DNA of 64,000 bases from Alphaproteobacteria bacterium. Lineage in GTDB: Bacteria > Pseudomonadota > Alphaproteobacteria > Sphingomonadales > Sphingomonadaceae. The position numbers and the translations under genes are program-made. Each line of letters opens with the position of its first letter. Within the stretch, counting starts at the first letter, position 1. Below the pieces are notes generated by a model that was not told the origin of the DNA, made no database searches, and saw nothing but the letters and a program-made list of their open reading frames with translations. Below are positions 1,616 through 8,314 of this stretch, piece after piece. Location of the stretch: positions 37,539 to 101,538 of the forward strand of contig JAUIIG010000001.1 of the NCBI GenBank assembly GCA_030431875.1, read 5' to 3'.

Positions 1616-3337
1616 ATGTTGCAGCAGCAGATCGACGTGAAGGAACGGGAGGAAAACTCGACCAAACCCCGCATCCTGCTTGTGGTGGGCGGTGGCATTG
1701 CCGCCTACAAGAGCTGCGAACTCGTGCGCCTTATCGCCAAGGCCGGAGGCAGCAGCACCTGCGTCCTGACCGAGGGCGGGGCGCAATTCGTCACGCCCAT
1801 GGCGCTGGCGGCGCTGTCCGGCAACCAGGTCTTCACCTCGCTGTGGGACCTCAAGAACGAGGCCGAGATCGGCCATATCCAGCTGTCGCGCGAGGCGGAC
1901 CTTGTGGTTGTCTGCCCCGCCACGGCGGACCTGATGGCCAAGATGAGCGCCGGTATCGCCGACGACCTTGCCACCACGCTGATCCTCGCCACCGACAAGC
2001 CCGTGCTCGTCGTCCCGGCGATGAACGTGAAGATGTGGCAGCACGAGGCCACGCAGCGCAATATCGACTGGCTGCGCGAGAGCGGCGTACGGGTCATGCA
2101 GCCTGACGAAGGTGCCATGGCTTGCGGCGAATTCGGCCCCGGTCGCTTGCCCGAACCGGAAATGGTCTGGCTGGAAATTGCCGACATGCTCGGCCTTGAT
2201 CCGGGTGCCGTGGGCGCCGAGATCGAAGATTACCTGCGCGGCATCGAAGCGGGCGAAGACGATCACGAAGGCGCGGATATCGGCGGGGATCACCCCGGCG
2301 GCCTTGCCGGCATGCTTGCCAGTATCATCCCGCGCTCCACCCCGCGCAAGGACGAGCTTGAGGACGAAGAGCTCTACGAAGGCGAAATTCCTGAAGGGAC
2401 GGTCATCGGACCTGACCTGCCGGAGCCCGATTATTCGGGTGTCGAGCACCTGATCCCGACCAAGGGCAAGGCCAAGGCCGCACCGCCGACGGACCGCGAG
2501 GCGATCAACCACGAGGTCAACGCGCGGCAGGAAGCCCCGCAGCCGTTCGAAGGCGAGGATGCGGCAGCTCCGGTCAACCCGTTGGCTCCGGGCGGCACGG
2601 TTCCGCCCGCGGCGGCACTTGCCCCGCATCCCGACGAGTTCGACCCGCTGGCAGGGCAGCCCGCCTTCGAGGACGATATCGAACACCGCCCGCTCTACGG
2701 CAAGCACGTGCTCGTCACCGCTGGCCCGACCCACGAGCCGATCGATCCGGTGCGCTACTTGGCCAACCGGTCGAGCGGCAAGCAGGGCTATGCCATTGCG
2801 GCTGCTGCGGCTGCTGCTGGCGCCAAGGTCACGCTGGTCTCCGGCCCCGTCCACTTGCGCACCCCGCTGGGTGTCGACCGCATCGATGTGGAAAGTGCCG
2901 AGGAAATGGCCAAGGCCGTGCGCGAGGCGCTGCCGGTCGACGTTGCCATCATGGCAGCAGCTGTCGCCGACTGGCGCACCAAGGATTACAACGACATCAA
3001 GATCAAGAAGCGCGGTGCCGCACCGCCTGCGCTGGTCCTGACCGAGAACCCCGACATCCTCGCCAGCGTGGCAGCCAGCGCCAAGCGGCCAGACCTGCTG
3101 GTGGGCTTTGCCGCCGAAACCAACGACGTGGTCGACAACGCCCGCAAGAAACGCAAGTCCAAGGGCGTCGACTGGATCGTCGCCAATGACGTGTCGGGTG
3201 ACGTCATGGGCGGTGACAACAACCACGTGCACCTCGTGAAAGAGGGCAAGGTCGAGCATTGGGACCCGATGACCAAGCAGGACGTCGCGACCAAGCTGAT
3301 CCAGGAAATTGCCGAGAGGGTGAAAGCCGATGCCTGA
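1616..3337 (+). CDS. coaBC: Bifunctional phosphopantothenoylcysteine decarboxylase/synthetase with a long acidic interdomain insertion
   Basis: [13 protein letters not shown] and PAMN (CoaC); [19 protein letters not shown] and GFAAET (CoaB). Confidence 0.95.
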
Positions 3338-4487: not shown

Positions 4488-5504
4488 ATGACCCACGCAC
4501 CGCCCATCCTTCGTTTCGACCGCTTCACGCTCGATCGCGCGAACCGGCTGCTGCTGCGCGACGGACATCCGGTCGACGTAGGCAGCCGTTATCTCGATGC
4601 GCTGGCCCTGCTTGTCGAGGCGCGCGGCGCTCTGGTCTCCAAGGACCGATTCATGGACGAGGTCTGGCGCGGTGTGCCTGTGACCGACGAGGCGCTAACC
4701 CAATGCATCCGCACCCTGCGGCGCGCACTGGATGATGACGCGGCCAATCCGCGCTTCATCCGGACTGTGCCGAAACATGGCTATCGCTTTGTTGGCAGCC
4801 TTGATGGCGATGTCATTGCTGCGGCCGGCCTGCCGCATGGCGCAGAGCAGGAGTCGGGCAGGCTGGCAGGGGCAGCCACCTTGGGCGGGGCGCTGGCGGG
4901 GCTGTCAGGTGGCCTGCTCTACGGCCTGCTGATGGCCCGCAGTAGCGAAGACGGCAGTCCGGTGCTGCTGACCATGCTCGCCCTCTGTCTTGCCGTGGGT
5001 GTGTTGGGCGGCGCCGGAGTCGGACTGGGCATGGCCATTGCCACGAACCTGCGCGGACGGAGTGCTGCCATGCTGGTGTTGGGCGGCGGGCTTGGCGGCC
5101 TGGTCGTGGGCGCGCTTGGCCGGATCGTCGGGCTGGACCTGTTCCACGTACTGGCGGGCGTCGGTGTGGGGCCGGTAACGGGGGTTTTCGAAGGGGCGGC
5201 AGTCGGCCTGCTGGCTGGCGGCGGCTGCGCGCTCGTGGCGCGAAATGCCGGCTGGCTCGGCGGACTGCTGGCAGTTCTTCTGGGCGCTGCAGGTGGTGCG
5301 CTCATCGCCTTGGTGGGGGGACGCTTGATGGCGGGCAGCCTGCTGCTGCTTGACCACTCGCTGGCAGAATCGCGTCTCGGCCTCGATAGGCTCGGAACCG
5401 TGCTGGGAGATGCACAATTCGGCCAGACCGCGCTCGTCGCGGCTTCGGCGCTGGAGGCCGCCGTCTTCGTCACCTGCGTGGCGCTGGCCGTGCGGCGCGC
5501 TTGA
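4488..5504 (+). CDS. Membrane-anchored transcription regulator: OmpR/PhoB (CadC/ToxR-like) winged helix plus Gly-rich multi-TM domain
   Basis: FDRFTLD...LVSKDRFMDEVW...LRRAL...IRTVPKHGYRF, followed by a hydrophobic C-terminal half. Confidence 0.85.
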   Translation: MTHAPPILRFDRFTLDRANRLLLRDGHPVDVGSRYLDALALLVEARGALVSKDRFMDEVWRGVPVTDEALTQCIRTLRRALDDDAANPRFIRTVPKHGYRFVGSLDGDVIAAAGLPHGAEQESGRLAGAATLGGALAGLSGGLLYGLLMARSSEDGSPVLLTMLALCLAVGVLGGAGVGLGMAIATNLRGRSAAMLVLGGGLGGLVVGALGRIVGLDLFHVLAGVGVGPVTGVFEGAAVGLLAGGGCALVARNAGWLGGLLAVLLGAAGGALIALVGGRLMAGSLLLLDHSLAESRLGLDRLGTVLGDAQFGQTALVAASALEAAVFVTCVALAVRRA

Positions 5505-5513
5505 GTTGCTCCT

Positions 5514-7004
5514 TCAGAACCGGCTGGGGAACTTCTTGATCGCCCAGCTGCCGTCCTTCTCGTTCATGGTGGCGCAGATGATGGTTTCACCATCGGTGCG
5601 CACGTTGACGAGGCCGTAGACCTGTCCCGCGACGACCGAGAGCCGCTTCATCTCCTTGTGCTTCTTCTCCGCCGAAAAGGCGCCGGGCTTGGTTTCGTCG
5701 AAATGCATGACCGAGTTGGCGAAGTCGTTGCCGGTCAGCATGAAATCGGTCCCGCCCGACTGCTTGACCTCGATCTTGGTCGGCTCACCCATGGAGACGG
5801 AGCGCGCCGTTTCGGTCGAATAGACCAGCGGGGTGAGTATCTGGTCGTCCTTGATGGTCAGGTAACCGGTCACGCCGCTGGCCCCGACAATGCCCGGACG
5901 CGGGTGGTCATGCCCTTCGCCGTCGCCAGAGGAAATCACCGTGGCGCTGGGGTTCACCCGCGACAGGAATTCGAGGCTGACGTCGTCGCTGCCGTGGTGG
6001 CAGGCCTTGGCCACGTCGGCCATGAACACGGCCTCGCGCCCCTCGTAACCGGCCAGCAACAGCTTCTGGCTGCGCTGGTTGAGGTCGCCCGTCAGCAGCA
6101 CCCGCGTGCCCTTGTAGTCGACCCGCAAGGTGATCGAATGGCCGTTGGTGTTCTGCGAGTTGCCGCCGGTGAGGCGCTCCAGGCCCGGCTCTCCGCCGGC
6201 GTCGAATTCCAGCGGACCGAGCACATGGATATCAAGGTCCTGTTCGGCAAAGTCGGGCAGGCTGCCGGTCTTGTCGCTCAGGCGCTCGAACTCGGTATCG
6301 CCGCCGTGCTGCGCCTTCGCTTGTGTCAGCTTCTCGATGAAGTCGGCCCACATGCCCTGCAGTCGCGGATTGGCGCCGTTTGCCAGTTGCGCAACGGCTG
6401 CGGGTCGATCACTCAACAGGTCTGTGAAGTAGCGCTTGCTGCCGACTTTCCTGGTGCTGCCCAGCGTCCGGTCATCATCCGGCGTTTTCCACCATGACAG
6501 GCCCGCATGATAGAACCTGTCGACCTTCACGTGATCGCAGTCGAGTTCGCCATCCTGCTCCACGTCGAGCAGGTCATCCAGCCCGCCGTAGTGATCGAGA
6601 TCGTTGTGCGAGGCCATCATGGCGTCGAGCCGGATCGTATCCTCGCCGTAGTCGGCGTAGAACTTCCAGTCGACGAAGTCCGCTGCGCTCTTGCCGGTGT
6701 TCTGCTTTGATCGCGGATAGCCGCCGTCGATCAGCATGTGCTTGCGCTCTGGCGTGACAATCAGGATGCCGTCGCCCTGGCCCACGTCGATGAAGTATAT
6801 CTCCAGCAGCGCTTCGCCCTCCAAGGCGGCGCTGCCCATCCAGCAGGTCTTCCAGCGGTGGCGACCACGAACGCGGGAACGGTCTCCGTCTTCCTCCAGC
6901 ACGTCGACCCGGTCACCCCAGAGGAAGTGCTTGACCGTCTTTCCCCCGGTCTTGTTCACCGTGCCCTTGGCCTCAGGCACTCCGACATATTTCCAGTTCG
7001 GCAT
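5514..7004 (-). CDS. Standalone ComEC/Rec2-like metallo-beta-lactamase-fold hydrolase with an N-terminal SH3-like domain
   Basis: [30 protein letters not shown] and HDHP motifs; no signal peptide or TM segment. Confidence 0.8.
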
Positions 7005-7109
7005 CGAAACAGCCCCCCGCTGCGAGATTTCGACTCGGCAACATACGCGATTCCAGCCACTTGCACCACGCGGGGAACTCCGTGGTCATATATCGCCAAT
7101 GCGCCCGGC

Positions 7110-7137
7110 TTGACCTGCCAATCAGCGAGGCTAGATT
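7110..7137 (+). promoter_or_regulatory. Sigma70-type promoter for the uORF-yjhX transcript
   Basis: TTGACC, then GCTAGAT; matches the alphaproteobacterial TTGACS...GCTANA pattern. Confidence 0.55.
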
Positions 7138-7164
7138 TGATGTATCCATTCCAGACAGGAATCT

Positions 7165-7188
7165 ATGTCAGAGATTGTCATCCGCTGA
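7165..7188 (+). CDS. 7-aa leader peptide MSEIVIR (toiL-like regulatory uORF)
   Basis: CAGGA RBS, ATG TCA GAG ATT GTC ATC CGC TGA; 3' end is complementary to the yjhX RBS region. Confidence 0.6.
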
Positions 7189-7191
7189 GCC

Positions 7192-7222
7192 GCCCGGCCC
7201 GCGACCTGATCGCGGGAAGGGC
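7192..7222 (+). promoter_or_regulatory. GC-rich hairpin in the yjhX leader
   Basis: GCCC-GG-CCCGCGA / TCGCGGG-AA-GGGC. Confidence 0.6.
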
Positions 7223-7298
7223 AGTCGCGCGCCCCGGTCACGCTGCATTGGCGGCGGGCCATGTCGGCGCGCTTGCCAGCAGATGGACTATCTTTCCA

Positions 7299-7556
7299 AT
7301 GAACATTTCCAAGTACGAACAGCGCGTGCTGCACGTGCTGGCGCAGGGCGGACGCATCGAGTTCGACCGTGACGCCAGCGGCCGCGTGACGCAGGTCGAC
7401 TGCTTCAACCGCGACGGCTTCCGGCTGGCAGACTGCTCGCTGCCCGTCTTTTCCCGTCTGAAGCGTCGAAGGCTGATCCGCAGCAGCGGCGGCGCGGCCT
7501 ACCGCATCACCCATGAAGGTCTGCGGGCCGTTCGGGCCCAGCTCGACAACCGTTAG
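7299..7556 (+). CDS. yjhX: YjhX/TopAI family (UPF0386) toxin-like protein
   Basis: [18 protein letters not shown]...C..RDG...[19 protein letters not shown], 85 aa. Confidence 0.88.
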
Positions 7557-7565
7557 CCGAAACGA

Positions 7566-7595
7566 GAGGGGCGGCACCTTGCGGAGCCGCCCCTC
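7566..7595. terminator. Hairpin between convergent genes
   Basis: GAGGGGCGGC / GCCGCCCCTC 10-bp stem; no clear U-tract. Confidence 0.6.
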
Positions 7596-7621
7596 GATGA
7601 TCGCAATCGCTGTGGTATTGA

Positions 7622-8314
7622 TCAGTCCCGTTCTTCGGGGGCGACCGAGATGCGTACCGTTTCGCCCGAATTGCCGGGGAAGTCGGTGAACATGGCCTCG
7701 ACCAGGTTGGGTACCAGGTACTGCAGGCGGTTGGACTGCGAGGCGGCTTCGGCGCGGCCTTCGAACAGGCGCTCACCCGTGGCGGCATTGTCGATCTTCA
7801 GCTCGATACCGCTGGTGTAGACGGTGTAGCTGACCACATCGTCGCCGAAGAAGCTGTCGTTCCAGCCCCAGCCCCAGTTGCGGTCGCGCAGGTAGGCCAC
7901 GCGGGTGCGGCCAAGGCGGTCTCGGAAGAGCACGGGGCGGGAGTAGCCGTACCAGCTGGAATAGAAGGGGTCGCGGGTGCGGAAGCCGGTGGAGCGCACG
8001 CGTTCACGGCCATTGTCGACGCCGTAATCGAAGCGAACCAGCAAGGTGGCCGCTTCGGGCGAGGCAGCCTGCGTATAGCCCAGCTGCGCCATGTGTTCCT
8101 CCACCTCGTCGGCATAGAGCGCGAACTCCAGGCCACCGGCGAGGGCGGGATCGTCAGCGACGACAAAGAAGCTCTGACCCTCGGGCGCAGGCAGCTGGCT
8201 TTCAAAGCGCGAGACGTCCGCGCGGAACGGGGTGGCGCAGGCGGCCAGGCCCAGGGCGAGCGCGGGCAGGAGCGAAAACCTGGCGAGGCGCTTCACGGAT
8301 GAAATGTTCAACAT
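7622..8314 (-). CDS. DUF4136-like lipoprotein
   Basis: Lipobox LAAC; LLVRFDYGV, aromatic/Arg-rich insert, LFEGRA. Confidence 0.8.
   Translation of the reverse strand: MLNISSVKRLARFSLLPALALGLAACATPFRADVSRFESQLPAPEGQSFFVVADDPALAGGLEFALYADEVEEHMAQLGYTQAASPEAATLLVRFDYGVDNGRERVRSTGFRTRDPFYSSWYGYSRPVLFRDRLGRTRVAYLRDRNWGWGWNDSFFGDDVVSYTVYTSGIELKIDNAATGERLFEGRAEAASQSNRLQYLVPNLVEAMFTDFPGNSGETVRISVAPEERD

Follow-up and report, generated by a model that had tools for sequence, protein, structure and literature searches.

A probable toiL-type regulatory leader upstream of yjhX in an Erythrobacter-like alphaproteobacterium

The DNA analysed here (64 kb of contig JAUIIG010000001.1; "the window" is this whole stretch) carries a yjhX gene, the homologue of Escherichia coli topAI, preceded by a leader which includes a short upstream open reading frame (uORF). 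The yjhX product (85 amino acids) matches the Pfam profile PF09857 YjhX_toxin over its full length (1-85, E=1e-39) and is 56-60% identical to E. coli TopAI. In E. coli the corresponding uORF is called toiL. Like few other bacterial uORFs, it has been shown to sense ribosome inhibitors of several unrelated classes. Its descriptions so far come from E. coli and relatives carrying a topAI-yjhQP operon. The element of the window is probably a toiL-type regulatory leader.

Layout and predicted fold of the yjhX leader

The leader lies in an intergenic region of 294 nt between a divergent MBL-fold gene and yjhX. The features of the locus are as follows.

5514-7004, minus strand: MBL-fold gene (496 amino acids), divergent neighbour upstream of the leader
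7110-7137, plus strand: promoter-like site (TTGACC 7110-7115, 16-nt spacer, TAGATT 7132-7137)
About 7144, plus strand: transcription start inferred from the promoter-like site
7147-7310, plus strand: whole leader as matched by a covariance model of E. coli-like toiL leaders
7157-7160, plus strand: ribosome-binding site AGGA of the uORF, 4 nt 5' of its ATG (read from the sequence)
7165-7188, plus strand: toiL-like uORF, ATG TCA GAG ATT GTC ATC CGC TGA (MSEIVIR*, 7 codons and a stop)
7165-7187, plus strand: 5' arm of the predicted helix P1, which is the uORF itself from start to stop codon (minimum-energy fold and pair probabilities)
7192-7222, plus strand: predicted hairpin P2, just 3' of the uORF stop (minimum-energy fold; aligns to P2 of the E. 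coli-like model)
7227-7272, plus strand: predicted stacked hairpin P4/P3 (fold; aligns to P4 and P3 of the model, both of which covary in the E. coli-like set)
7277-7306, plus strand: predicted 3' arm of P1 (anti-uORF), covering GGA 7285-7287, the spacer, U7300/G7301 and yjhX codons 2-3
7299-7556, plus strand: yjhX
7622-8314, minus strand: DUF4136 lipoprotein gene, convergent with yjhX and the next gene downstream

An earlier note on this DNA had proposed that a seven-codon uORF can sequester the ribosome-binding site of yjhX and that a stalled ribosome would free it. Re-reading of the sequence showed that its coordinates for promoter, uORF, hairpin and stem are all correct. The promoter-like site is the single sigma-70-like match in 6950-7700, where shuffled sequences give 0.2, and TTGAC[CG] also lies 53-59 nt 5' of the uORF ATG in four relatives (L007, L011, L012 and L036). 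The seven-codon frame with its AGGA is indeed present at 7165-7188, and 134 nt separate its ATG from that of yjhX. The GGA presented as the yjhX ribosome-binding site is homologous to an AGGAC of close relatives and lies inside the predicted helix, but it appears to be a weak site because it is 11-12 nt 5' of the yjhX ATG.

The RNA 7145-7310 folds at -75.7 kcal/mol, compared with -60.5 +/- 4.3 kcal/mol for 200 shuffled sequences (z = -3.56), none of which was as good. The stem proposed in the note (7177-7187 with 7277-7288) forms exactly as described, with a C7183/A7281 mismatch and a bulged G7285, at -10.4 kcal/mol alone and with pair probabilities of 0.44-1.0 for RNA 3' ends at 7310, 7340 and 7400. 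It is, though, the core of a longer predicted helix that covers the start codon as well. This helix, P1, pairs 7165-7187 with 7277-7306 through 21 base pairs: GAGAU 7171-7175 faces AUCUU 7290-7294, C7169 and A7170 face G7301 and U7300 of the yjhX start codon, and AUGU 7165-7168 at the uORF start faces ACAU 7303-7306 in yjhX. The 5' arm would therefore comprise the whole uORF, and the 3' arm the initiation region of yjhX (-22 to +8). In folds that include coding sequence, the uORF's own GGAA 7158-7161 pairs with UUCC 7307-7310 (yjhX codons 3-4), and P1 may thereby limit initiation on the uORF too.

The effect of a ribosome on the uORF was modelled by forcing the uORF and the footprint flanks to be single-stranded. 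With this mask, the unpaired probability of yjhX positions -15 to +6 rises from 0.42 to 0.62 in the window leader and from 0.38 to 0.54 on average over 80 loci. When a segment of equal length at mid-leader is masked instead, the values stay at 0.42 and 0.38, respectively (Wilcoxon p of about 5e-12). The model thus agrees with the idea that occupancy of the uORF would free the yjhX start region.

The hairpin at 7192-7222 is present in the minimum-energy fold. It was rejected as an intrinsic terminator since it is followed by AGUCGCG and lacks a U tract. No other terminator-like site was found in the leader (7144-7299), and the sole match lies inside yjhX (7427-7444) with a poor tail. This bears on the possibility that the leader acts on transcription, premature termination being the output and occlusion of the start merely the trigger. 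Rho-dependent termination is part of topAI control in E. coli (PMC12121999), and such a step, Rho-dependent or intrinsic, would be an added layer rather than an alternative to translational control. The terminator search speaks against the intrinsic form, while Rho dependence is not assessable by sequence in an alphaproteobacterium of 62% GC. As the principal output of the window leader, termination seems quite unlikely.

Conservation of the uORF and of its pairing among yjhX leaders

A scan of species-representative genomes with an alignment of four proteins gave more than 500 yjhX matches. The best 80 loci, together with 6 plasmid or chromosome loci, form a sample of 86 loci, each with 300 nt or more upstream, spanning Alphaproteobacteria (Sphingomonadales, Rhodobacterales, Hyphomicrobiales, Rhodospirillales), Betaproteobacteria and Gammaproteobacteria. 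The closest yjhX relative among the best 80 belongs to an Erythrobacter metagenome-assembled genome (MAG; 81% amino acid identity). A uORF was counted when an ATG upstream of yjhX opens a frame of 6-8 codons and is preceded by a purine-rich ribosome-binding site.

Such a uORF occurs in 80 of the 86 loci, at a median ATG distance of 127 nt (range 109-170). The mean in mononucleotide shuffles is 5.9 (maximum 15), and the reverse complement contains 6. Glu is the third residue in 68 loci (0.2 in shuffles). The 60 distinct peptides follow the consensus M-[LSQKF]-E-[INTL]-[VA]-x-x-R-stop, which the MSEIVIR of the window fits. The length is 8, 7 or 6 codons (58, 20 and 2 loci) and changes in whole codons. 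The yjhX start codon is TTG or GTG in 23 of 87 loci, a frequency that fits with tight translational control.

These figures bear directly on the view that the frame is incidental, either part of an untranslated structured RNA or a chance arrangement. The strong nucleotide conservation of GAG-NNT-G might indeed reflect RNA structure alone. However, a ribosome-binding site, an ATG, 6-8 codons and a stop are combined in 80/86 loci where about 6 are expected, the length varies by entire codons and the E. coli homologue is demonstrably translated, so that an incidental frame is hardly credible.

Three of the six loci without a uORF by this rule carry a short one that departs from it: L073 (MLEIVAIR, whose ribosome-binding site is weak), L041 (MLMTESVS, or MTESVS if an internal ATG is used) and L006 (MEII). 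The remaining three depart from the common layout in ways of their own. In an Erythrobacter sanguineus MAG (L010, 2874-3030) the uORF stop TGA is changed to AGA, a natural stop-loss variant in which the frame reads on for more than 50 codons and crosses the yjhX start in a different frame. In two Pseudomonas loci (L057 and L064) yjhX is leaderless, with another ORF directly before position 3001 and a YjhQ-like GNAT gene about 600 nt downstream; these represent a different operon layout.

Metagenome contigs provided an independent set in which 59 of 77 loci carry a uORF by the same strict rule; variants such as MTTEIA and MLSEIA fail only the ribosome-binding-site pattern. One contig (L101) has a 13-codon uORF, MSSNRPLPEIVIR, about 130 nt before yjhX (start at 1501). 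It ends in PEIVIR and so shares EIVIR-stop with the window, which suggests that the 3' half of the uORF is its conserved core. Eight further loci (L138, L142, L148, L150, L153, L164, L165 and L166) encode yjhX homologues of 58-60% identity that start with TTG and have no ATG uORF in the upstream 170 nt. Their shared leader is conserved but of another kind, GGGAACCGGCUGACGA...CGUAUCUCGGUUCCUGA, and may represent an alternative regulatory RNA. A search of metagenomes for leaders nearly identical to that of the window reached at most 79% amino acid identity, and therefore gave no close series for a test of the exact stem. The sequence was found at full word share only in biofloc and other metagenome DNA runs, and in no RNA or Ribo-seq run. 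No Rfam family matches the leader.

The pairing between uORF and yjhX start region is supported by covariation in the E. coli-like leaders. An alignment of 23 such leaders from Beta- and Gammaproteobacteria (A5) was scored with a structure of five helices (P1 in two segments, P2, P4 and P3). RNAalifold, unaided, pairs uORF codons 5-6 with the anti-uORF near the yjhX ribosome-binding site and the uORF AUG with a CAU at the yjhX start. In this alignment 86.3% of the cells are paired, compared with 26-46% when the partners are slid by 1-3 columns, and double-change cells number 100 (36.9 in shuffles; 0/500). Compensatory changes occur in 7 of the 9 pairs that join uORF codons 5-7 to the anti-uORF. 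For instance, GCAGUA (Ala-Val) is accompanied by UACUGC and GUAGCA (Val-Ala) by UGCU(A/G)C.

A covariance model (R1) built from these 23 leaders, and thus from no alphaproteobacterial sequence, gives a single match in the window. This match extends over 7147-7310 and the full length of the model (1-171 of 171), with 23.9 bits and an E-value of 2.3e-4 under a rough calibration. The model also recovers many other alphaproteobacterial leaders at full length with weak scores.

A global MAFFT alignment of 78 leaders (A3) misplaced the 3' arm and was excluded from the covariation analysis. In place of column-wise covariation in the clade of the window, duplex energies between each uORF and its cognate start region were compared with those of permuted partners (5000 permutations). 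In the non-E. coli-like genome set (n=56, mainly alphaproteobacterial) the cognate mean is -19.6 kcal/mol compared with -16.0 +/- 0.39 kcal/mol for permuted pairs (0/5000). In the metagenome set (n=52) the values are -20.8 and -16.6 kcal/mol (0/5000). Decoy targets from the same locus are weaker too (-17.3 and -14.9), and in 73 of 80 leaders 6 or more bases of the uORF are paired with yjhX positions -35 to +6 in the minimum-energy fold. The uORF and the yjhX start region therefore co-evolve across the family.

The sequence of the uORF appears to be under selection at both the peptide and the RNA level. The C-terminal Arg (57 of 80 loci) is encoded by six different codons (CGC, CGA, CGG, CGT, AGA and AGG), and Val or Ala at codon 5 by seven (GTA, GTG, GTC, GTT, GCG, GCA and GCC). 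This synonymous variety, together with the closure of the frame, is a sign of selection on translation. At codon 3, GAG prevails over GAA (65:3) even in E. coli-like genomes, and the third base of codon 4 is T in about 70 of 80 loci while the amino acid varies (I, N, T, L, R or S). The constrained bases of these two codons sit in the helix.

The composition of the peptide also invites comparison with amino acid or tRNA-supply attenuators, in which pausing at I4-V5-I6 under scarcity of branched-chain aminoacyl-tRNAs would report a nutrient signal rather than antibiotics. MSEIVIR and MLENVIIR are both rich in Ile and Val and, according to the authors of the eLife study, related sensory uORFs such as the one before whiB7 respond to amino acid starvation as well (PMC12121999). 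Across the family, however, the Ile/Val positions vary freely (AGN, VTT, AAR, TVS), and the 6-8 codons include no run of a single codon as in classical leader peptides. An attenuator of this type is very unlikely.

Several observations weigh against a toiL-type leader in the window or reduce the force of the evidence for it. The R1 score is modest and comes partly from the conserved uORF and first yjhX codons. The covariation analysis of yjhX leaders that the earlier note had called for gives a divided answer: compensatory changes like those of the E. coli-like set were not recovered column by column in the clade of the window (Erythrobacteraceae/Sphingomonadales alignments A4 and A7), because P1 pairs in different registers in different lineages (GAGAUUG with CAAUC; GAGAAUG with UUCUC; in the window, GUCAUC with GAUGGAC). 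For A4 and A7, RNAalifold instead paired GAGAUUGU with yjhX codons 2-4, which are invariant; this alternative was rejected as it carries no covariation information and has nearly zero probability in the window ensemble. The duplex of the window uORF with its start region, taken alone (-18.7 kcal/mol), has a z of -1.96 against shuffled 3' arms, and this uORF pairs equally well with 9% of the start regions from other loci. The window sequence by itself is thus suggestive of the predicted stem but not conclusive, whereas the comparative data are convincing. Given the bias to GAG and the T of codon 4, part of the peptide conservation is a constraint on the RNA. The sampled sequences are phylogenetically related, and the counts overstate the number of independent events. 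Finally, the window peptide has one residue fewer than ToiL and ends at UGA, and antibiotic-specific stalling may differ.

Proposed mechanism and genomic context

If the window leader is of the toiL type, as the comparative data suggest, it could operate as follows. The transcript starting at about 7144 would first encode MSEIVIR, from a well-initiated uORF whose RNA doubles as the 5' arm of P1 (7165-7187 with 7277-7306), closing over two hairpin domains. P1 would bury the yjhX start codon and codons 2-3 together with the spacer and the weak ribosome-binding site before them, leaving the gene untranslated by default. Fast passage of ribosomes through the uORF would open P1 only briefly. A ribosome stalled at the uORF start codon, at Val5/Ile6 or at Arg7-stop would occupy the 5' arm, the yjhX start region would be freed and the TopA-inhibitor protein made. 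The signal would be impaired translation and, by analogy with E. coli toiL, could include several classes of ribosome-targeting antibiotics.

Translation of the uORF, ribosome stalling on it and the identity of the stress are what we infer for the window locus. Since stalling is among these, a simpler arrangement has to be weighed in which each ordinary round of uORF translation would melt P1 for a moment and keep translation of yjhX at a low basal level, the output tracking initiation on the uORF and not antibiotics. The same architecture fits it, and the pairing of GGAA 7158-7161 with yjhX codons 3-4 could make uORF initiation limited by structure. In E. coli, however, the leader is strongly repressed despite translation of toiL, and mutation of the toiL start codon reduces induction 12- to 110-fold (PMC12121999). 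Constitutive opening would moreover have no need for the conserved Glu3, Val/Ala5 and C-terminal Arg, the last spelled with six codons. We consider it unlikely; none of the rival explanations is favoured by the data.

The host is Erythrobacter/Porphyrobacter-like and, judging from its gene content, the locus is not an E. coli-type topAI-yjhQP operon. GNAT genes were searched with tblastn (E<=1e-4) using E. coli YjhQ and a yjhX-linked GNAT of Agrobacterium, to which the sensitivity is limited. With these two queries no YjhQ-like GNAT gene was found in the 64-kb window, and none beside yjhX in ten Erythrobacteraceae relatives. In the larger sample a GNAT gene is adjacent downstream in 36 of 87 loci and absent from this position in about 51. 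The convergent DUF4136 gene is syntenic in all ten relatives, which, with the lack of an adjacent GNAT gene, points to yjhX as a stable chromosomal gene without an adjacent antitoxin. The 496 amino acid MBL-fold gene is missing from the flanks of the ten relatives, and the upstream side is therefore variable. From this distribution the uORF appears to travel with yjhX and not with the toxin-antitoxin pair.

Between the convergent yjhX and DUF4136 genes, a match to BjrC68, a small RNA of Bradyrhizobiaceae, was found below threshold (7559-7633, minus strand, 33.6 bits for a gathering score of 39, E=8.6e-7). The stretch includes a GGGGCGGC...GCCGCCCC hairpin and is probably a terminator shared by the two genes. 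At the gathering threshold the window has no Rfam match, and it contains no tRNA gene. Elsewhere in the window, an ORF of 338 amino acids (4488-5504, plus strand) has an apparent N-terminal winged-helix region of the OmpR/CadC type, recognised by reading the translation. The remainder appears long, rich in Gly, Ala and Leu, and probably membrane-spanning.

A wider interpretation may be offered tentatively. The toiL uORF and its long-range helix could be ancestral and near-obligatory companions of yjhX in Alpha-, Beta- and Gammaproteobacteria, YjhX being primarily a modulator of topoisomerase I induced by translation stress rather than a classic toxin of a toxin-antitoxin system, and x-E-x-(V/A)-x-x-R-stop a broadly conserved arrest module. 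If so, YjhX would be gated by an RNA/nascent-peptide sensor that is retained even beside genes lacking an adjacent antitoxin, such as the syntenic chromosomal yjhX of Erythrobacteraceae. The conservation pattern suggests that the conserved safeguard on this topoisomerase inhibitor is the leader, not an antitoxin. It also leads to the prediction that environmental alphaproteobacteria would engage a brake on DNA topology when their ribosomes are poisoned, for example by the antibiotics of neighbours. The family further constitutes a natural mutational series, with at least 60 distinct peptides and matched RNA arms, in which residues and pairs important to stalling could be sought.

The concept is already published, and the present observations are an extension rather than a new principle. 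In the papers searched on toiL, topAI and yjhX, no description of the leader outside enterobacteria was found. The modest novelty lies in the breadth: uORF and fold accompany yjhX almost universally in three proteobacterial classes, also where no antitoxin is adjacent.

Comparison with E. coli toiL and other known systems

In E. coli K-12 (NC_000913) toiL reads ATG CTG GAG AAT GTA ATC ATC CGA TAA (MLENVIIR*) and lies 139 nt before topAI; it is followed by a hairpin, and GAUGAUUA adjoins the topAI ribosome-binding site. toiL is translated, and the induction of topAI that tetracycline, retapamulin, tylosin, erythromycin and spectinomycin bring about requires the toiL start codon (Baniulyte and Wade, eLife 2025, PMC12121999). 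Val5 of the peptide matters for tylosin, while erythromycin apparently stalls termination (PMC12121999).

The window leader resembles this system in several respects. In both, a short uORF with a ribosome-binding site lies about 135 nt before the YjhX/TopAI gene (134 and 139 nt). The peptide is of the form M-x-E-x-V-I-(I)-R-stop, and MSEIVIR shares M1, E3, V5, I6 and the Arg before the stop with MLENVIIR, being shorter by one Ile. The uORF RNA pairs, by prediction in the window, with the start region of the toxin gene, in a long-range helix around a hairpin that follows the uORF and a second, stacked one. The window leader is also detectable by a covariance model of E. coli-like leaders. Together with the near-universal uORF upstream of yjhX, these likenesses bear out the proposal of the earlier note that the toiL/topAI architecture is conserved here.

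The differences concern the details of the leader and its surroundings. The window uORF has 7 codons instead of 8 and a UGA instead of a UAA stop. Its pairing register is another one: P2 begins 4 nt past the stop, whereas the E. coli P2 contains the stop. Neither yjhQ nor yjhP is found downstream of the window yjhX. The host is a high-GC alphaproteobacterium.

In Salmonella enterica a small protein, Mia-127, is encoded upstream of topAI (cited in PMC12121999). It belongs to the same uORF family, represented in our sample by a Salmonella plasmid copy (L005, MLENVII*, 138 nt before yjhX). This enterobacterial uORF is almost the same as toiL and has a yjhQ-like GNAT gene linked to it, whereas the copy in the window is distant in sequence and lacks an adjacent antitoxin gene.

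A comparison can also be drawn with the type II autoregulation described for YjhX-YjhQ (Yamaguchi and Inouye 2015, PMC4666372). There too a gene of the YjhX toxin family is regulated, but in the window no adjacent antitoxin gene is present and control apparently resides in the leader RNA.

The proposed mode of action, in which a ribosome stalled on a short ORF remodels the RNA and exposes a start region, is that of translation attenuation and is shared with the antibiotic-sensing ermCL/ermBL, msrDL, vmlR and cplR leaders. These are unrelated in sequence, control resistance genes and mostly respond to one drug class or stall position. The window leader would instead control a growth-inhibiting protein, and its E. 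coli homologue responds to at least five drug classes.

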